Positions 4,917 through 31,334 are shown, counted from the stretch's first letter. The stretch is DNA of 61,512 nt from Oculatellaceae cyanobacterium bins.114 (GCA_033764315.1 JANRJA010000228.1:1-61512); one strand, 5' to 3'. Notes: generated by a model not told the origin, from the letters alone. Program-made: numbers and translations.

Positions 4917-6449
4917 ATGGGTACAGCTCAACCATTCACGATCGCCCCGTCAGGTTACATTCTGGCGTTGGATCTGGGCACTACCGGAAACCGAGCATTT
5001 CTATTCAACCATGTTGGGCAGGTTGTAGGTCAAGCCTATCGGGAGTTAACACAACACTATCCCCAACCGGGATGGCTAGAACATGACCCGCTAGAAATTT
5101 GGCATGCCACTTGTGCCGTGATGCAAGAGGCTATTCAGCAGGCTGGGATTCAGCCTTTAGAGGTGCGGGCGATCGGGCTAACGGTGCAACGAGAAACCTG
5201 TTTGCTGTGGGACAAAACAACTGGACAACCCCTTCATCATGCGATTGTTTGGCAAGATCGGCGTACGACTCCTCATTGTCAGCAGTTACAAGAACAGGGT
5301 TATGGGGCTGAGATTACAGAGCGCACAGGGTTGGTGATTGATGCTTATTTTTCGGCGACTAAACTCAGTTGGTTGCTCAAAAATGTGGTTCAACCAGCAG
5401 CTATTTCACTCGACACGATTTTAGCTGGAACGATTGATAGCTGGATTTTGTGGAAACTCACAGGGGGCAAAGTCCACGCCACTGATGACAGCAATGCCAG
5501 TCGCACTCTGTTATATAACCTCACCACTCGTCAGTGGGATGCATCCCTGCTGCAATTATTTGGCATCCCGGCTCAATGGTTGCCCCAAATTCAACCCAGC
5601 TTGAGCTACTTTGGCACCACTGCTACTTCAGTCATGGGGGCTGAGATTCCCATCACTGCGATTTTGGGTGATCAGCAAGCTTCATTGTTTGGTCATGGGT
5701 GCGATCGCCCTGGTTTGGTTAAATGCACTTACGGAACGGGCAGTTTCTTAGTTGCACATACAGGGGAACACATTGTTCGTTCTCAGAAACAGTTGATTGC
5801 CACAATCGCCTGGACTCAGCAACAGACTAATGAGAAAACAGCCGTCGGTTATGCCTTGGAGGGCAGCATGTTTACCACAGGGGCTTGCATTCAATGGCTA
5901 CGCGATGGGTTAAATGTGATTCAAACCGCCGCTGAAACAGAAGCCCTGGCGCAGCAGGTATCTGATACGGCTGGAGTTTATTTCGTTCCAGCTTTTAGCG
6001 GATTAGGCGCACCCCATTGGGATATGGAAGCACGGGGGGCGTTTTTGGGGTTGACCGGGGGGGCACAACGACAACATCTAATCCGAGCTGTTTTAGAAGC
6101 GATCGCGTTTCAAGTCAAAGAGGTGGTGCAGGCGATCGATCAATCAGGTGTCGTTAAAATTGAGCGGCTTCGGGTAGATGGCGGTGCCTGCCAAAATAAT
6201 TTCTTGATGCAGATTCAAGCCGATGTCTTGGGTATCCCTGTTGAGCGTCCGGCTTTGCTTGATACCACTGTTCAGGGAGTCGCCTTTGCCGCAGGGCTAG
6301 CTGTGGGCTTCTGGCAAACTAACGCAGAACTGACGCAACAACGCCAGGTCGAGCGAGTCTTTGAACCCAGTTCTAACTCAGACCGGGCGATCGCTCAGTT
6401 CACCATCTGGCAAAAGGCAGTCGAACGCGCCAAACATTGGGTGAGTTAA
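4917..6449 (+). CDS. glpK: Glycerol kinase
   Basis: ALDLGTT, QRET, WQDRRT, DAYFSATK, GDQQA, TYGTG, YALEG motifs. Confidence 0.95.
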   Translation: MGTAQPFTIAPSGYILALDLGTTGNRAFLFNHVGQVVGQAYRELTQHYPQPGWLEHDPLEIWHATCAVMQEAIQQAGIQPLEVRAIGLTVQRETCLLWDKTTGQPLHHAIVWQDRRTTPHCQQLQEQGYGAEITERTGLVIDAYFSATKLSWLLKNVVQPAAISLDTILAGTIDSWILWKLTGGKVHATDDSNASRTLLYNLTTRQWDASLLQLFGIPAQWLPQIQPSLSYFGTTATSVMGAEIPITAILGDQQASLFGHGCDRPGLVKCTYGTGSFLVAHTGEHIVRSQKQLIATIAWTQQQTNEKTAVGYALEGSMFTTGACIQWLRDGLNVIQTAAETEALAQQVSDTAGVYFVPAFSGLGAPHWDMEARGAFLGLTGGAQRQHLIRAVLEAIAFQVKEVVQAIDQSGVVKIERLRVDGGACQNNFLMQIQADVLGIPVERPALLDTTVQGVAFAAGLAVGFWQTNAELTQQRQVERVFEPSSNSDRAIAQFTIWQKAVERAKHWVS

Positions 6450-24219: not shown

Positions 24220-25590
24220 ATGGCAGTTGTAATTGCAGGTGAACGCAGTGGTGTTGGTAAAACTACCATCACGCTGGCACTGTTGGCCGCATTGGGTCAG
24301 CGTGAGTCAGTGCGAGTGCAATCCTTTAAAACCGGGCCTGACTACATCGATCCGATGTTCCATCAATTTGTTACTGGACGTGCCTGTCGTAATCTCGACC
24401 CCATTCTCACTTCAGAAGCATATGTCGCCCAATGCTTTCAACGGCATTGCCAATCTGCTGACTTTGCCCTTGTAGAGGGGGTTATGGGATTATTCGATGG
24501 AGTCACAGGCAAAGATGATTGGGCGAGTACAGCCCACATTGCACGACTTCTGGGATTGCCCATTATTTTGGTCATTAATTGCAGTAGCACCTCCCGTTCT
24601 ATTGCCGCGATCGCCCACGGTTATACCACCTTTGACCCCCGATTGACCTTTGCCGGAGTCGTTTTAAATCGAGTTGGCAGCGATCGCCACTTAGAATTGC
24701 TTCAAGATGCCCTCAGACCCCTTAATCTGCCTATTCTGGGTGTGTTGCGACGGCAAGATGAGATTACTATTCCCGATCGCCACCTGGGGTTAATTCCCAC
24801 CGACGAACTGCCTGAACTGAGGACAGTCATCGCTCACCTCGCTCACCTCGGCAAAACCTGCTTCAACTGGGATATCCTCTTACCCTTGATGAGATCCCCT
24901 TCTTTCCCCTCTCCCCTGGCCGATGAGTTGACCGAACCCCACTTCACACCCCATTCCCCTATTCGCCTTGCCATTGCCCGCGATCGCGCCTTCAACTTTT
25001 ACTACGCTGATAATTTGGATCTGCTACAAACCGCAGGATTTGAGTTAGTCGAGTGGAGTCCAATGCACGATCGCACTCTTCCCGAAAACAGTCAGGGTCT
25101 TTATTTTGGCGGTGGCTTTCCAGAAGTGTTTGCGGCACTGTTGAGTGACAATCACGCCGCTCGTCAAGCTGTGAGAGCCGCGATCGCCGCAGGAATGCCC
25201 ACCTACGCCGAATGTGGTGGACTGATGTATCTGTGCGATCGCATTGTTGACTTTGCCGGAAAGACCTATCCTATGCTCGGAATCGTGCCCACAGAAGCTC
25301 ACATGGGAAAACGGCTAACCTTAGGCTATCGACAGGCGATCGCCCAACAATCAACCCCCTTATTGGCTAAAGGAGACATCCTTTGGGGGCACGAGTTTCA
25401 CCGCTCTAGTCTGACCACTGAACCAGAACAACCGCTGTTTGCCTTGCAAAACTACGAAGGTACATTGCATCAACTGGAGGGATGGCAGCGATCGCAGGTG
25501 CATGCTTCCTATTTACATGTGCACTTTGGTGGTAAACCCCAGTTCATTGAGCGTTTTCGTCAACAATGTCAGCAATATCAAGGTCAATAA
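24220..25590 (+). CDS. cobB: Cobyrinate a,c-diamide synthase
   Basis: SGVGKT, KTGPDYIDP, EGVMGLFDG, AECGGLMYL, GHEFH. Confidence 0.95.
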   Translation: MAVVIAGERSGVGKTTITLALLAALGQRESVRVQSFKTGPDYIDPMFHQFVTGRACRNLDPILTSEAYVAQCFQRHCQSADFALVEGVMGLFDGVTGKDDWASTAHIARLLGLPIILVINCSSTSRSIAAIAHGYTTFDPRLTFAGVVLNRVGSDRHLELLQDALRPLNLPILGVLRRQDEITIPDRHLGLIPTDELPELRTVIAHLAHLGKTCFNWDILLPLMRSPSFPSPLADELTEPHFTPHSPIRLAIARDRAFNFYYADNLDLLQTAGFELVEWSPMHDRTLPENSQGLYFGGGFPEVFAALLSDNHAARQAVRAAIAAGMPTYAECGGLMYLCDRIVDFAGKTYPMLGIVPTEAHMGKRLTLGYRQAIAQQSTPLLAKGDILWGHEFHRSSLTTEPEQPLFALQNYEGTLHQLEGWQRSQVHASYLHVHFGGKPQFIERFRQQCQQYQGQ

Positions 25591-25674: not shown

Positions 25675-26733
25675 TTAGTGAAGGGGCAGGGTGAGCGCAG
25701 TTACGATGCTCTGAACATCGAGAGGAGGGGTTGTATCCCCAAAATGCCCAATAAAGACCAATCGAGTTTGGCGAACTTCTGAGGGTTGCCAGGGGCGATC
25801 GTAGAAAGTATCAAAGCGATTGCCCACCCCTTGCACGACTAAACGCATCGCTTTGTTTGGAACGGCCACAAAGCCTTTAATTCGATAAATTTCGTGTTGT
25901 TGAACCAGAGATTGCAAGCGATCGATCAACTCTGTCGGGTCAAACATCTGGTCTAACGTCACGTGAATCGAGGTAATGTCGTCGTCATGCTCATGCTCTT
26001 CCTCGGTGTCATGGTGACTGGGACGAGACTCTAAATTGTCTTCAACGGCAGCGTTGAAGCCGAGCAGTAAGTCTGGGTTAACGTCTCCCTGTTTGCAGGG
26101 CACAATCTTAACGCCAATCGGGAGTTCTTGTTGCAACCATTGCTGAACTTTGTGTTGAGTTTTTAGATCAACCCGATCAATCTTCGTCAGCAACACCATA
26201 TCGGCACACGCCAACTGATCTTCAAACAATTCTTCGATCGGGGTTTCATGCTCTAAGCTGTCATCCGCTTGTCTCTGAGCTTCAAGGGCATCTAAGTCAC
26301 CCACAAATTGCCCATTGGCGAGAGCTTCACAATCTACCACCGTCACGACTCCGTCCACCGTTGCCCCTGTGCGAATTTCAGGCCAACGAAAAGCTTGTAC
26401 CAGGGGTTTGGGTAGAGCCAAGCCAGAGGTCTCAATCAAAATGCAGTCGATGCGATCGCGCCGTTTCAGCAACTCTTGCATCGTAGGCAAAAATTCTTCC
26501 TGCACGGTGCAACACAAGCATCCGTTGGTCAGTTCAACAATATTGCTATCGGGTGTGTCATCATCACACACTTGACAAGAGCGCAGCAAGTCTCCGTCAA
26601 TCCCCACTTCGCCAAACTCATTGACTAACACAGCAATGCGGCGACCTTGATTGTTTTGTAATAGATTACGAACCAGAGTTGTTTTTCCGGCTCCTAAAAA
26701 ACCTGTCACTACGGTTACTGGAATTTTATGCAT
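25675..26733 (-). CDS. cobW: Cobalamin biosynthesis GTPase CobW
   Basis: TGFLGAGKT, GCLCC, ETSGLALPKP, His-rich segment. Confidence 0.93.
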   Translation of the reverse strand: MHKIPVTVVTGFLGAGKTTLVRNLLQNNQGRRIAVLVNEFGEVGIDGDLLRSCQVCDDDTPDSNIVELTNGCLCCTVQEEFLPTMQELLKRRDRIDCILIETSGLALPKPLVQAFRWPEIRTGATVDGVVTVVDCEALANGQFVGDLDALEAQRQADDSLEHETPIEELFEDQLACADMVLLTKIDRVDLKTQHKVQQWLQQELPIGVKIVPCKQGDVNPDLLLGFNAAVEDNLESRPSHHDTEEEHEHDDDITSIHVTLDQMFDPTELIDRLQSLVQQHEIYRIKGFVAVPNKAMRLVVQGVGNRFDTFYDRPWQPSEVRQTRLVFIGHFGDTTPPLDVQSIVTALTLPLH

Positions 26734-26772
26734 AATTTTTACCTGATAGATTGCAGTTGATAATATGGATAT

Positions 26773-27177
26773 TTAACGGTCAATACCCAAGGCTGGAGCT
26801 GGATTGGGTATGGATGGCAACACAGCGTGGATCCCTTTTTTGACTGTCTCTGGACGCTCTTTATAAGGAACTTTGCCATCGGTACAGGCAATGTATTGCC
26901 TACTAAATTGCAACAATTCTGAAACAGAGTTTGTAGGGGAAAGTGCACTTAAAATAAACGTGAGTTTGCTAGGAGCCGCAAACGCTACTACACAGGAATG
27001 ACTGCAAGCACCCATACAGCGCACGGGTTGCAAATGAATCGATTCACGCCAATCACACGATTCTAGTCCTTCACTTAATTGATTAAACAGAGATTGTCCT
27101 GCACTAGATTCCGTTTGACTCTGATCGAGTTCTGAAGGACGGCAAAGCACACACACAAACAAAGTATGTTGGGTCAT
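26773..27177 (-). CDS. DUF1636 family metal-binding protein
   Basis: VCVLC...CMGACSHSC...G.VPYKERP. Confidence 0.85.
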   Translation of the reverse strand: MTQHTLFVCVLCRPSELDQSQTESSAGQSLFNQLSEGLESCDWRESIHLQPVRCMGACSHSCVVAFAAPSKLTFILSALSPTNSVSELLQFSRQYIACTDGKVPYKERPETVKKGIHAVLPSIPNPAPALGIDR

Positions 27178-27268
27178 AACAAGTACACAGTTTCAACAGG
27201 GATGTAGATCAGCAGGGATGTAGGTTTAGAAAAGAGCTAACAAATAAATGGCAACTAAATTAGTGGGC

Positions 27269-27724
27269 TCATGAGGGTCTCCTGGGGGTCGTTAAATCTG
27301 GTTGAAACTCTGTCCAGCGATGGTGCACCTGGTTGTAGCAGTCACCTGGAGAAATCGCCAGGTTTTGCAATAGGTTGAGATGGACACTTCCATTCCCTGT
27401 GACAAGTAGCACGATCGCCTGATCTGGGTCATAGGTGGCGATCGCCCCCAATAATGCAGTCACAGCCGTTTTCTCAAGTTCCAGTGCGGCCACATATTGA
27501 GCTACCTGTGCCTGTGGAATAAAGGTTTGATAAAAGGGAACGAGATCAATACTCCAATCAATGCCAGAGGTTACAGCATCAACCAAATCACAAACCACCA
27601 TGCCTCGTCCCTCACGGGTATATCCCATCCAGGCGGTGTATCCGATGCCTAACAAATGGTGATGGATAAAATAGTTTTGCCAGTAGCCAGAATAGCCCTG
27701 CCAGAGTTCATTTCGCAGCCGCAT
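27269..27724 (-). CDS. Hypothetical protein
   Basis: 151-aa ORF overlapping the methyltransferase stop; GRGMVV and YDP motifs. Confidence 0.7.
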   Translation of the reverse strand: MRLRNELWQGYSGYWQNYFIHHHLLGIGYTAWMGYTREGRGMVVCDLVDAVTSGIDWSIDLVPFYQTFIPQAQVAQYVAALELEKTAVTALLGAIATYDPDQAIVLLVTGNGSVHLNLLQNLAISPGDCYNQVHHRWTEFQPDLTTPRRPS

Positions 27725-28697
27725 TGACTTCCTCCCGCAATCCGTTTGTGGACTCTATCGGCTTTCGGACAGCACGAAACATGCCAAATCGACAAAGCCC
27801 AGTGCCAAACGCTAACCGCATCAACAACAGCGTCGGCACTTCTCGCAGCGATTTAATCAACCCTGATATCCCAAACCGCACCAATCCACTGGGTCGAGCC
27901 ACACCCTGCCAAATAGAGTCGAGCCAAGAGGGTAAAGTTTGGACAGTCCAGTCTGCGGTGGTCACGGTTCCGGCAACAAGTCCGGTTGCGGCCAACAGTT
28001 CGGCAAAGCCCTCAATGCTAGCAAATTCAGGGTGTGCCCACTGATCGAGCAATTGCCGCATCACAAGTCTCTCCCAACCATTGAGCGGTTTTTTACGAGC
28101 ATCTCTCTGGTTCCAATCAGCCACAACTAAAACACCACCAGGTTTCAACACCCGCATCAATTCTCTAGCAAAAACGGCTTTATCTGGCATATGAGGCCCC
28201 GCTTCAATCGACCAGACCACATCAAAACTGGCATCAGGAAACGATAGTGCCATCGCATCATCCACCTGAAAACGTACATTCAGTTCTTTAGGGGTTAGTT
28301 CTTGTGCTCTTCTAACCTGCTGGGGGCTAATCGTGATTCCAGTGACAACAAACCCATAATCTCGTGCCAGAATGCGGCTGCTGCCTCCAATACCACACCC
28401 CACATCTAACACAGAGTTGCCAGCAGGTAACGAGTCTAAGCCACCCCAACGCACCATCTCATGCACAAAATCTGATTTAGCCCCTAAAAAATCTTTGCGT
28501 CGAGGGGGAGAGCCATAATGACCCAGGTGAATATGATCCCCCCAATAAAACTCTAAAATGCCGTCATCTGTCCACTCATCATAGGAATTAGCCACCGAAT
28601 CAGAGGATTGATAACGACGGGCAGTGAGTAGATAGAGAGCAATGCTAATCAGCAGAAACGCCAGAAAAATTCCAAGTGCTGTAATAAATAGAGTCAT
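27708..28697 (-). CDS. MPBQ/MSBQ methyltransferase (Sll0418-like; tocopherol/plastoquinone pathway)
   Basis: YQSSDSVAN.YD.WT.DGILE.YWGDHIHLGHY, LDVGCGIGGS, EAGPHMPDK, GLCRFGMF closely resemble Synechocystis Sll0418. Confidence 0.88.
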   Translation of the reverse strand: MTLFITALGIFLAFLLISIALYLLTARRYQSSDSVANSYDEWTDDGILEFYWGDHIHLGHYGSPPRRKDFLGAKSDFVHEMVRWGGLDSLPAGNSVLDVGCGIGGSSRILARDYGFVVTGITISPQQVRRAQELTPKELNVRFQVDDAMALSFPDASFDVVWSIEAGPHMPDKAVFARELMRVLKPGGVLVVADWNQRDARKKPLNGWERLVMRQLLDQWAHPEFASIEGFAELLAATGLVAGTVTTADWTVQTLPSWLDSIWQGVARPSGLVRFGISGLIKSLREVPTLLLMRLAFGTGLCRFGMFRAVRKPIESTNGLREEVNAAAK

Positions 28698-28702
28698 GCC
28701 GA

Positions 28703-29854
28703 TTAAACCTCACCGCTTTTAACGATTGCATTTTCCATCGTCGGAGCCAGTTCTGGAGCCACGATGGATTGAGTTGCTTGAAAGCTAGCGATCGCCATTA
28801 AACGACTGGAGGCAGGATCCCACAAAATAAATTTGAAACAATCAGGAACATCCACCATTCTCAAAGTTCTAATGTGAGTCAGCAAATGAAGATTAGCCTT
28901 GTGGCAAGCTTCGAGATTGTAGTTAGGGATTCTTTCAGAAAGATGATGAATGTTGTGATAACCAATGTCTGCGGAAAACCATTTGAAGATTGTAGGTAAC
29001 TCTAGATAACTGCTGCCCTCGATCGCCCCCAACAAATAATCCCATCCTTCTGTCTTATGAGCATAGGAACTATCAAAGTTATGTTGCACAAAAAAGACGC
29101 AGATAAAGATCGCCGCAGAACCCGTTAAGGTGATTGCGTAAACGCTAAAGAAGAAACCAAAACCAAGCCAATAACCAAGCAAAAGCCAACTGCTGACAAC
29201 ACAAATGTTATTAAAAAGTAGATCCCAAAACTCGCCTGCTGTATACCAATTTCTAGATTTATAGGAAGCAATAATTTTGGGAAGCCCCATACCTGGATTA
29301 CGCTTTAAACAAGTGAATAAATGACCGATAAAATCATAGATTCCTTTAATTAAGGCAAGTCTTGGTTTAATAGCAAGATAGAAAAAACCACCTGGAAAAA
29401 TCATCAATGGATGTCTCAGCCATTCATATCGGTGTTGGGCTGATGCACTCAGATTGGCGAATTCGTCAGTTGAGAGCAAGGCAGAGGGACCTCGATATCG
29501 CTGCCAATCGCCATTGGTTCTGTGGTGATAGGCATGTCCTCGTGACCAGGGATATTGGGGGATGGCGTTGATTACACCTAAAAAGAAGCCGACAACCCGA
29601 TTAACCCGTCTTGAACGAAACAGGGAATAGTGTCCACAATCATGCATCAATGAAAAACAGCGGACTGAAAACAGTGTCATCAGAATCAGAATGGGTAGTA
29701 GCAGCCAAATTGAAATAGGGGCAATTTTGAAAGCTAAAACCCAACAAAGAATATAGGGAATCACTGTGTTGATAATTTGATATGTTGCTCGGAAGTCATT
29801 GCTCTTCATGTAGGGCGTGAGAACAAAATCCGACTTTTTAATCGTATTTTCCAT
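28703..29854 (-). CDS. Membrane fatty-acid desaturase
   Basis: His boxes HDCGH, HAYHH, HNIHH. Confidence 0.9.
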   Translation of the reverse strand: MENTIKKSDFVLTPYMKSNDFRATYQIINTVIPYILCWVLAFKIAPISIWLLLPILILMTLFSVRCFSLMHDCGHYSLFRSRRVNRVVGFFLGVINAIPQYPWSRGHAYHHRTNGDWQRYRGPSALLSTDEFANLSASAQHRYEWLRHPLMIFPGGFFYLAIKPRLALIKGIYDFIGHLFTCLKRNPGMGLPKIIASYKSRNWYTAGEFWDLLFNNICVVSSWLLLGYWLGFGFFFSVYAITLTGSAAIFICVFFVQHNFDSSYAHKTEGWDYLLGAIEGSSYLELPTIFKWFSADIGYHNIHHLSERIPNYNLEACHKANLHLLTHIRTLRMVDVPDCFKFILWDPASSRLMAIASFQATQSIVAPELAPTMENAIVKSGEV

Positions 29855-30019
29855 TCAGTAAAGTCTCTTATAAAGAATCTCAACGTAATCACTCTTGCTT
29901 CTGTTTAATCTCCTATTAGAGGCTTTTAGCTAACTCAAATAAAGCTGCCTTGATGGAATGATTTACCTTGTCGCCAGTACAACTGACTAAACAAGGTAGA
30001 GGCTAAGTTCCGCAGGGGC

Positions 30020-30186
30020 GATGTTTGTTAACACCTTGATGTTTGTTAGCACCTTGATGTTTGTTAGCACCTTGGAAATAGTTCAACTTAGATCTCACTT
30101 AAAATCTTGCAAAATCAAACGTGAGGTTAAACTTTTCCACTTATTTGCTCACCTGTAGTTGCTCACCTATACTTGTTTACCTATAG
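30020..30186. repeat. Short tandem repeats in the riboswitch leader: 3 x 18 bp (30020-30073) and 3 x 14 bp (30145-30186)
   Basis: GATGTTTGTTARCACCTT x3; TTGYTYACCTRTAS x3. Confidence 0.85.
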
Positions 30187-30460
30187 ATATTCGTCTATAG
30201 AGCATGGTTTTGGTAGACCATAAAAAGTTAGATAGCCGCACCATACCTCATCATACGCATTACCTCACGTAACCTTTTGCTTTACGTAATAATCAGGCTG
30301 CTGCGTAGAGGCTAATGACACGACCAGCGAAAATTGGGCGATTTTGAATCGGCGGGTGGTTTTGAATCGGGTACTCTTGCCACCCCTAGCTTGTCGTTAA
30401 CCCACAAAAAACACTTAGACACAATCTGTACCTCGCAGATATTGAGTGAACATAGATTAC

Positions 30461-30582
30461 GGTCGGCGGGCATCCTGACTTAGAAAGCAATAGCTCCCAT
30501 TACAGTTGCGGGACAGTGCCGGATTTACACCAGACTTTCCCCCTTGCGTTTGATGGCTGCTCCCCATCAAAACCGATATCAC
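30461..30582 (-). ncRNA. Cobalamin (B12) riboswitch
   Basis: Minus strand reads GGGGAAAGTCTGGTGTAAATCCGGCACTGTCCCGCAACTGTAA...AAGTCAGGATGCCCGCCG, the B12-element core and B12 box. Confidence 0.92.
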
Positions 30583-30776
30583 CCTAAAGAATAGCACGGC
30601 ATCACCCTAAACCTGTCATTTGTAGGTAGAAAAAGCGATCGCCCACTGCCTATCTTCCAATCTCTATCTTTTGTTTAGCCCCTCTTTAACTTATGAAAGA
30701 TGTTAAACCGTTTGCACTTGCGTAACCTGAATTGAGCGTGAAAGTGATTGTCAAATAATAAAAAAAGGAAACGCGA

Positions 30777-31334
30777 ATGCCAGATGATGCATTGAGAAAA
30801 AATTTACCAGAGATCGATCCAACAGAAATCGAAGACTCAAGAGTGGCGATCGCTGATAAGGATCGTTCTTTTTTGGAGAAAGTCATGGTCGAAGGGAGAT
30901 TTGCTGATCCTTATGACGCCAGAGACTTTACAGAAGTTGTATTTCGGGTGATGCGAGACTTGATGAGCACTGAAGCAGCTGATCGAGTTGAAGGGGAACT
31001 GCATGAGGAAGCACTGCCCACTAAAGAAAAGGCTTTGCAAATGGAAGTGGCTGATTTGTGGAGAGACACCAATCCGCTGGTGAATTTTTTGAGCCGAGTG
31101 CGTCCACCCTGGCAAGGTCCTGGCATCTTTAAGATTGACTCCGATCGCTTCTTCTTTAGAGTGGCTAATGAAGGTGGACTTGAGCGAGGATTTGAGAACA
31201 AGGATGCCAAGCGTAAGCAAGCGGTTAGAGCCGTCTTTGCAGCTACCAAAAAGGAACTCTCTGCCGAGAGAATCCAGGAAATTGCCAGTTGGTTACCCGA
31301 AGGCGGAGTTCGAGAACTCTGGGATGAAGCCTAG
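30777..31334 (+). CDS. DUF2267-like protein
   Basis: FLEKVM...EVVFRVMRD...[13 protein letters not shown]...VRELW. Confidence 0.75.

Follow-up and report, generated by a model that had tools for sequence, protein, structure and literature searches.

A cobalamin riboswitch upstream of desaturase, methyltransferase, orphan-protein and cobalt-delivery genes in an Oculatellaceae cyanobacterium

The riboswitch and the genes behind it

We analyzed a 61,512-nucleotide (nt) stretch of DNA (the window; JANRJA010000228.1:1-61512, assembly GCA_033764315.1) from Oculatellaceae cyanobacterium bins.114. A functional-looking cobalamin riboswitch heads a unit on the minus strand that consists of a short leader open reading frame (ORF), a long spacer and five co-oriented genes (Table 1). 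These genes encode a fatty-acid-desaturase-family protein (DES), a methyltransferase (MT), an orphan protein of 151 amino acids (aa) that we call H151, a DUF1636 protein and CobW. DES and MT are separated by 5 nt, MT and H151 overlap by 17 nt, and the next gaps are 91 and 39 nt; the gene order, co-orientation and tight spacing described in an initial annotation of the sequence agree with the coordinates. The operon end is bounded by a convergent gene for cobyrinic acid a,c-diamide synthase, and CobW is a member of the TIGR02475 equivalog family. The window derives from contig C134 of a 6.6-Mb assembly that is 90.7% complete, and the nearest named relative, based on DES and MT sequence, is Oscillatoria sp. 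FACHB-1407. Loci, genomes and contigs are cited below by our own numbers (L, G and C).

Table 1. Features of the riboswitch-headed unit and its surroundings, in window coordinates
Feature	Position	Strand	Evidence
Promoter-like site CTGGCA-17-TATTAT, about 160 nt upstream of the aptamer	30755-30783	-	Consensus scan, 9/12 match
Cobalamin riboswitch aptamer, full length	30448-30592	-	RF00174, 59.5 bits vs gathering score 31.5, E 3e-12, model 1-189, not truncated
Expression-platform hairpin, 5-bp stem, 7-nt loop with GAGG Shine-Dalgarno	30424-30440	-	Conserved; forms in minimum-free-energy fold
Short leader ORF directly after the hairpin; 36 aa from GTG at 30422, 12 aa from an overlapping TTG	30312-30422	-	Translation, platform comparison
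Untranslated spacer with two tandem-repeat arrays	29855-30311	-	
DES, membrane fatty-acid-desaturase-family di-iron protein, 383 aa	28703-29854	-	PF00487 FA_desaturase, 87.4 bits vs cut-off 29.7
MT, class I S-adenosylmethionine (SAM) methyltransferase, 329 aa, N-terminal hydrophobic segment	27708-28697	-	Methyltransf_11, 85.6 bits, and related models
H151, orphan cyanobacterial protein, 151 aa, CcmS-like fold	27269-27724	-	AF2 model, structure search
DUF1636 protein, cobW companion	26773-27177	-	PF07845, 113.5 bits
CobW, cobalt-delivery GTPase for cobalamin synthesis	25675-26733	-	TIGR02475, 503.4 bits vs cut-off 332.1
Cobyrinic acid a,c-diamide synthase (CobB/CbiA), convergent, context	24220-25590	+	NF002204, 573 bits

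The aptamer is the sole Rfam match within the window, and the RF00174 covariance model bears out the riboswitch call of the initial annotation. When the region after the aptamer was aligned with ten further cyanobacterial copies, the 17-nt platform hairpin was near-identical in 10 of the 11 riboswitches, with an ATG or GTG within a few nt after it. The cbiM copy has a compensatory change in the closing pair, from A-T to G-C. Where the riboswitch precedes hupE or cbiM, the regulated gene itself begins at the start codon that follows the hairpin, and thus the platform is likely translational and would hide the ribosome-binding site. We infer that a platform coupling ligand binding to expression is present, with a predicted function. 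Folding of the region after the aptamer returned the weak platform hairpin alone, with z-scores no different from those of shuffled sequences. In a consensus scan, the minus strand from the aptamer to DES contained no terminator-like site. The promoter-like site upstream of the aptamer is a candidate for the start of the riboswitch transcript; the region has four such sites against 8.0 expected in shuffled sequences, which makes this weak evidence.

From the end of the aptamer to the DES start codon there are 593 nt. DES-, MT-, H151- and MetE-linked riboswitches with a platform start codon are followed by ORFs of 10-49 aa whose sequence is not conserved, and for two H151-linked copies the platform motif search gave no start codon within a few bases. 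After the platform, 225-244 nt of spacer precede MetE, and ahead of H151 the spacer is typically 300-450 nt long. MetE riboswitch operons of related cyanobacteria have the same design of hairpin, leader ORF and spacer, and because they share this long-leader, short-ORF layout the 593-nt gap is not disqualifying. The initial annotation had cautioned that the riboswitch lies about 600 nt from the first start codon; the distance is correct, but as an objection it mostly falls away, since long leaders are normal for such operons. No H151 gene remnant was detected in the spacer by hmmsearch of six frames (best E 0.53), and a crude consensus scan listed no internal promoter on its minus strand. The two repeat arrays of the spacer (30020-30074, 18 nt x 3.1, 97% match; 30145-30186, 14 nt x 3.0) are both absent from locus L022 of the same genus, in which the spacer is about 200 nt shorter.

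Riboswitch linkage across cyanobacteria

Two sets of DES loci were searched for riboswitches. The first comprised 15 loci (14 orthologues and one distant homologue), and in 6 of these an Rfam scan identified a riboswitch that lies upstream of DES and in the same orientation. The second comprised 80 loci from a species-representative collection, a few of which duplicate the first set. Here we used an nhmmer aptamer profile that was custom-made from 11 aptamers and is distinct from the Rfam model. It gave 25 matches in 23 loci, all 25 on the DES strand, and a riboswitch lies upstream of DES in 20 of the 80 loci (17 full and 3 partial). The partial aptamers correspond to the 5' half (25-57 bits), are located just upstream of DES (L102:6883-6964, L106:6488-6575, L114:6696-6749) in two Microcoleus genomes and one Synechococcales metagenome-assembled genome, and look like decayed riboswitches.

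Among the 42 genomes with MT, for which all MT loci were examined, the gene lies behind a riboswitch in 10, one by a partial match. Riboswitch-MT and riboswitch-H151-MT operons occur in genomes without DES, and G022 has two separate riboswitches, one before DES-H151 and the other before MT. Members of the H151 family were identified at 28 loci, which belong to 26 of the 61 genomes, and a co-oriented riboswitch is present upstream at 24 of these loci; the remaining four are cut by contig ends. H151 is the tightest riboswitch partner. Conservation of the riboswitch upstream of orthologues, which the initial annotation had proposed as a check, is thus found for all three genes.

The linked genes occur in several orders, including riboswitch-H151-DES(-MT), riboswitch-MT-(CobW)-H151-H151b-DES, riboswitch-MetE-H151-H151b-DUF1636-CobW, riboswitch-H151-DES2-CMAS and riboswitch-H151-DUF1636. 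DES2 is a second, shorter desaturase type (281 aa), and CMAS is a cyclopropane-fatty-acid-synthase-like methyltransferase; the two follow H151 in about seven loci. Riboswitch operons without cobW were identified at L024, L027, L064, L088 and L136. As the linkage recurs, including at loci without cobW, the gene arrangements show that DES, MT and H151 are predicted members of the cyanobacterial B12 regulon in their own right, and not passengers. Their recurrence as riboswitch cargo in several lineages, above all that of H151, suggests that B12 control of these genes has been selected.

Across genomes, the cargo that accompanies H151 comprises MetE, an oxidase of the CADD family (TIGR04305), a flavin hydroxylase resembling PlqH, the two desaturase types, two methyltransferases for lipids or prenylquinones, DUF1636/CobW and genes for Btu uptake. 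If the genes that supply cobalt and B12 are set aside, the enzymes in this cargo depend on O2 or SAM. The cyanobacterial MetE operons belong to the metE-type regulons, which have the same aptamer family; in L031 and L190-L195, MetE is found in operons together with H151, DES and MT. MetE has a known B12-dependent twin, MetH, whereas none is known for DES, MT or H151, and DES and MT are riboswitch-linked in a minority of genomes.

Several arrangements within these loci are recorded here as observations. The operon of L031 (G047) has the order riboswitch-MetE-H151-H151b-DES-MT-CADD-DUF1636-CobW-DUF7676-BtuF-BtuC, in which the CADD gene (5584-6402) encodes a di-iron protein of the CADD family with a putative role in folate metabolism (TIGR04305, 278 bits). 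DES2 follows riboswitch-H151 in L196, L197, L198, L199, L202 and L203 (genomes G036, G002, G038, G009, G024 and G026, respectively), in which DES is often absent; CMAS after DES2 is co-oriented in L196-L199, divergent in L202 and was not seen in L203. DUF1636 adjoins CobW also in L022, L030, L031, L190-L192 and L196. Clusters of two to three COG0523 paralogues (CobW-like, 27-36% identical) adjoin the riboswitch, but are not downstream of it, at L027:5887-10035, L031:13489-15635 and L190-L192.

The genome that contains the window has four cobalamin riboswitches, the other three of which precede hupE, cbiX and a gene for a 389-aa protein. At the last of these (L002, G000 C243:12559-14116), a 61-aa ORF begins at the platform of the riboswitch (58.9 bits), and next comes the 389-aa protein, for which no significant Pfam or NCBIfam family was identified. 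The ORF and the protein may be a B12- or cobalt-related pair that has so far gone unrecognized. A tblastn search with cyanobacterial MetE did not identify MetE in this 90.7%-complete genome, and MetH is present (C119). Methionine synthesis thus appears to be B12-dependent.

Related systems have been described. In Anabaena sp. PCC 7120, a cobalamin riboswitch controls the translation and the level (about 100-200-fold) of the lengthy mRNA that spans alr4027-btuD (PMC10878165). That operon, alr4027-btuB2-btuFCD, resembles the one described here in that a cobalt/B12-responsive riboswitch acts on a long polycistronic mRNA. Its cargo is for B12 uptake, whereas that of the window, known here from sequence alone, consists of lipid/prenylquinone enzymes and cobalt delivery. 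Kazanov et al. (2007; PMC2211319) reported from marine metagenomes that a B12 element precedes a desaturase gene (ole1, COG1398), and proposed the same isozyme hypothesis; that desaturase was assigned to another COG (the Delta9/OLE1 type) and was on short metagenome fragments, for which the description names no operon partners. A catalogue from 2013 has 14 cyanobacterial rows in Table S1, of which the 11 considered here list btu, metE, hupE, cbiX, cob/cbi and 'cfrX' (PMC3766115). A desaturase, MT or H151-like gene is absent from those 11 rows, as is the word 'desaturase' from the supplements, although the 2016 regulon tables for Synechococcus PCC 7002 may list some. As described in the catalogue, the recognized cargo beyond B12 synthesis and uptake consists of isozymes that replace B12-dependent enzymes. 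Literature that joins a cobalamin riboswitch with a plastoquinone methyltransferase was limited to one general review in our searches. The conserved cargo of H151, DES and Sll0418-type MT thus appears not to have been described before.

The operon proteins and candidate B12-dependent counterparts

H151 has no Pfam family, and its family comprises 99 cluster representatives among 1.84 billion proteins. An AlphaFold (AF2) model built from 45 sequences has a mean confidence score (pLDDT) of 89.2. It matches chain A of 9iur, a structure of CcmS, with a Foldseek E of 2.6e-6 and a VIA Z of 9.4 (root-mean-square deviation 3.3 A, 114 residues aligned), and CcmS is the single clear structural relative, as the next VIA entry has Z 5.0. 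CcmS (Slr1911) is a beta-carboxysome assembly chaperone (PDB 9iur, 8zlh). H151 was rejected as a member of the CcmS family (NF049993), with 17.6 bits against a cut-off of 125. A PDB sequence-profile search with the H151 alignment produced no significant match (best E 0.34; E 0.76 for Slr1911), and an ESM Atlas search returned no usable feature matches; the Atlas model is poor (pLDDT 0.41) and its structure matches are not meaningful. H151 therefore has a fold in common with CcmS without significant sequence similarity, and its genomic context is the B12 regulon and not the carboxysome. By analogy with CcmS, it may be a small partner-binding helper.

The His boxes of DES (HxxxH, HxxHH and HxxHH) can be seen in the translation and are invariant in 32 relatives. 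The closest NCBIfam model is that of the Delta5 acyl-lipid desaturase DesA (NF052548), to which DES is related; membership was rejected (224 bits versus the equivalog cut-off of 500). The names given to DES in databases are limited to 'fatty acid desaturase' and, through KO transfer, 'Delta12 desaturase'. Orthologues with at least 59% identity were identified in 14 of 60 related genomes. DES is near a cyclopropane-fatty-acid-synthase-like methyltransferase in L030, L090 and L115. A complex prediction for DES and H151 scored 0.01 relative to a mark of 0.32, and is not evidence either way.

MT is present in this genome as a single copy with one 35%-identical paralogue. Orthologues occur in 42 of 61 genomes, most of which also have a paralogue of about 38% identity. 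Relatives that are 78-87% identical carry the JGI name 'MPBQ/MSBQ methyltransferase', and one NCBI record among the relatives is named '2-methyl-6-solanesyl-1,4-benzoquinol methyltransferase'. These names agree with the label 'Sll0418-like' in the initial annotation, but MT has no NCBIfam equivalog match that would confirm it. We consider MT, on the basis of annotation names, to be a candidate protein of the Sll0418 / MPBQ-MSBQ type (PlqQ candidate). In four loci (L030, L055, L135 and L145) MT is beside a UbiH/PlqH-like hydroxylase. The L030 copy, which was the one scanned, is above the UbiH/UbiF/Coq6 cut-offs (TIGR01988 402 bits, PRK07364 598 bits). The plastoquinone C1-hydroxylase PlqH belongs to the UbiH/UbiF/Coq6 family, and this adjacency supports a predicted prenylquinone role for MT.

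The identity of the plastoquinone methyltransferase of cyanobacteria was an open question as of 2025 (PMC12998194). The Sll0418 / PlqQ candidate of Synechocystis discussed there shares its annotation class with MT. Inactivation of sll0418 is reported to leave plastoquinone undiminished, and in E. coli the C5/C6-methylase activity of Sll0418 is reported to be weak. Unlike the MT locus of the window, Synechocystis has no cobalamin riboswitch in the 2013 catalogue (PMC3766115).

Radical-SAM proteins that might be B12-dependent counterparts are encoded in the genome. We identified an Slr0320-family radical-SAM protein (NF045585, 1058 bits), as well as two DUF4070 B12/radical-SAM proteins and BchE; MetH is encoded as well. 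BchE is the B12-dependent anaerobic Mg-protoporphyrin cyclase; the copy here (L155, G000 C155:14925-16982; TIGR02026 762 bits) has a C-terminal response-regulator receiver domain (residues about 537-654), which is an unusual fusion. In this genome, no quinone link was found in the gene neighborhoods of either the Slr0320-family gene or the DUF4070 genes. A gene for 3-dehydroquinate synthase, of the shikimate pathway, occurs 295 nt after one DUF4070 gene on the same strand (L206, G000 C69:22955-25933), and was not counted as evidence. Slr0320 itself has been described as a radical-SAM protein with a B12-binding domain that is needed for electron transfer from QA to QB in high light (PMC8065906). 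The authors who studied the mutant wrote that a role in plastoquinone methylation 'cannot be excluded' (PMC8065906).

The Slr0320 family is present in 56 of 61 genomes. MT is present in each of the five genomes that lack it, and Slr0320 in each of the 19 that have no MT orthologue. G033 and G044, which are high-quality genomes without Slr0320, have an MT that is not behind a riboswitch. This is consistent with a model in which the riboswitch-controlled gene is a backup, with n = 2.

Possible roles of the operon

In the explanation that we favor, and to which we assign a probability of about 0.4, the riboswitch would adjust a B12-independent route to the B12 supply. When (pseudo)cobalamin is plentiful, the bound aptamer would keep the platform hairpin shut, so that the GAGG site and the adjacent start codon are hidden. 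The leader ORF would then not be translated and the long polycistronic mRNA would be turned down, probably via lost ribosome protection, as proposed for the alr4027-btuD operon of Anabaena. When B12 or cobalt is scarce, the operon would be on. DES, MT and H151 together would form an O2-/SAM-dependent, B12-independent route for modification of prenylquinones and membrane lipids, held in reserve for conditions under which B12-dependent radical-SAM enzymes are unable to function. In this route, the Sll0418-type MT would catalyze C-methylation of the ring, and desaturation by DES may prepare acyl chains for methylation. H151 would be a small helper protein with the CcmS fold, and CobW and DUF1636 would raise cobalt delivery in parallel. 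Replacement of a B12-dependent enzyme, as by MetE, is the only recognized reason for such cargo in the 2013 catalogue, which leads to the backup reading for DES, MT and H151. That such a route is the purpose of the operon remains tentative, and we consider it possible rather than probable.

Several observations weigh against this explanation. No B12-dependent enzyme is known to carry out a reaction of the DES or MT type. In the Slr0320-family protein of this genome, the B12-binding domain scores 23 bits, below the Pfam cut-off of 32. Co-occurrence with B12-binding radical-SAM genes, which the initial annotation had suggested as a check, goes in the expected direction, as no genome lacks both MT and Slr0320 (0 of 61), but about 1.6 would be expected by chance, so the signal is weak and not significant. 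The leader ORF is unconserved, and its translation would have to be coupled to genes 460 nt downstream; the 593-nt spacer could also contain an internal promoter. There is no riboswitch in 32 of the 42 MT genomes and at 60 of the 80 DES loci, contrary to a simple isozyme picture. On a quick maximum-likelihood tree of DES (93 sequences, which do not include L010, L035 or one short row), the riboswitch label changes 15 times, with at least four changes forced by well-supported branches, and the linkage is thus labile, having been gained or lost repeatedly. The riboswitch is therefore an optional layer on DES and MT, unlike on MetE. The initial annotation had suggested a low-B12 backup for B12-dependent counterparts; of this, the riboswitch is real, the linkage is conserved and candidate B12/radical-SAM proteins are encoded in the genome, but the B12-dependent counterpart itself did not emerge.

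An optional layer on otherwise constitutive genes would also fit a response to SAM shortage. If low B12 stalls MetH, methionine and SAM would fall, and the cell may raise its key SAM-dependent methyltransferases and their partners, with no need for a B12-dependent twin. MT and the cyclopropane-synthase-like cargo are SAM-dependent, MetE occurs in operons with H151, and this genome has MetH with no MetE found by tblastn. The commonest partners (desaturases, the UbiH-like hydroxylase and the CADD-type oxidase) do not use SAM, however, and they are left unexplained, as is the tight tie between H151 and the riboswitch. Making more SAM consumers under SAM shortage is also no known strategy of a riboswitch regulon, and we regard this explanation as unlikely.

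Somewhat less likely still is that the riboswitch controls the leader ORF alone or nothing, and that DES to CobW are expressed, whatever the B12 level, from a separate promoter within the spacer. The spacer with its repeat arrays is poorly conserved beyond the genus, the leader ORF shows no conservation, and the partial aptamers at three DES loci indicate that decay happens. Against this, the aptamer and platform of the window are intact, riboswitch and DES are co-oriented in 25 of 25 matches, the linkage recurs across gene orders and lineages, MetE operons share the leader design, and Anabaena provides a precedent for a long riboswitch-controlled operon (PMC10878165). It is very improbable that the riboswitch serves cobW and DUF1636 while DES, MT and H151 are there by chance. 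CobW and DUF1636 are classic B12-regulon genes, in keeping with control of hupE, cbiX and the 389-aa gene by the other riboswitches of this genome, but chance placement as a general explanation is contradicted by cobW-less operons with the orders riboswitch-DES-H151, -DES-MT-H151, -H151-DES, -MT and -H151-DES2-CMAS.

The explanation by a B12-independent route can be extended to cyanobacteria generally, and here we are considerably more doubtful. There may be two routes for C-methylation of plastoquinone, of tocopherol precursors and perhaps of acyl lipids. One, of ancient origin, would use B12-dependent radical-SAM enzymes, for which the near-universal Slr0320 family and the DUF4070 proteins are candidates, and the other would be an O2/SAM route that the riboswitch switches on together with H151 under B12 shortage, and that comprises the Sll0418-type MT and desaturases paired with alkene methyltransferases. 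If true, this would explain why plastoquinone is kept in sll0418 knock-outs and would reveal which enzyme is the plastoquinone methyltransferase that has been missing.

Few clues to hidden B12 biology are as good as cobalamin riboswitches. The cargo described here would link B12 status to the modification of prenylquinones and membrane lipids. For the function of the H151 family the linkage also offers a first point of entry, as it does for the question of why several B12/radical-SAM proteins are retained by cyanobacteria.

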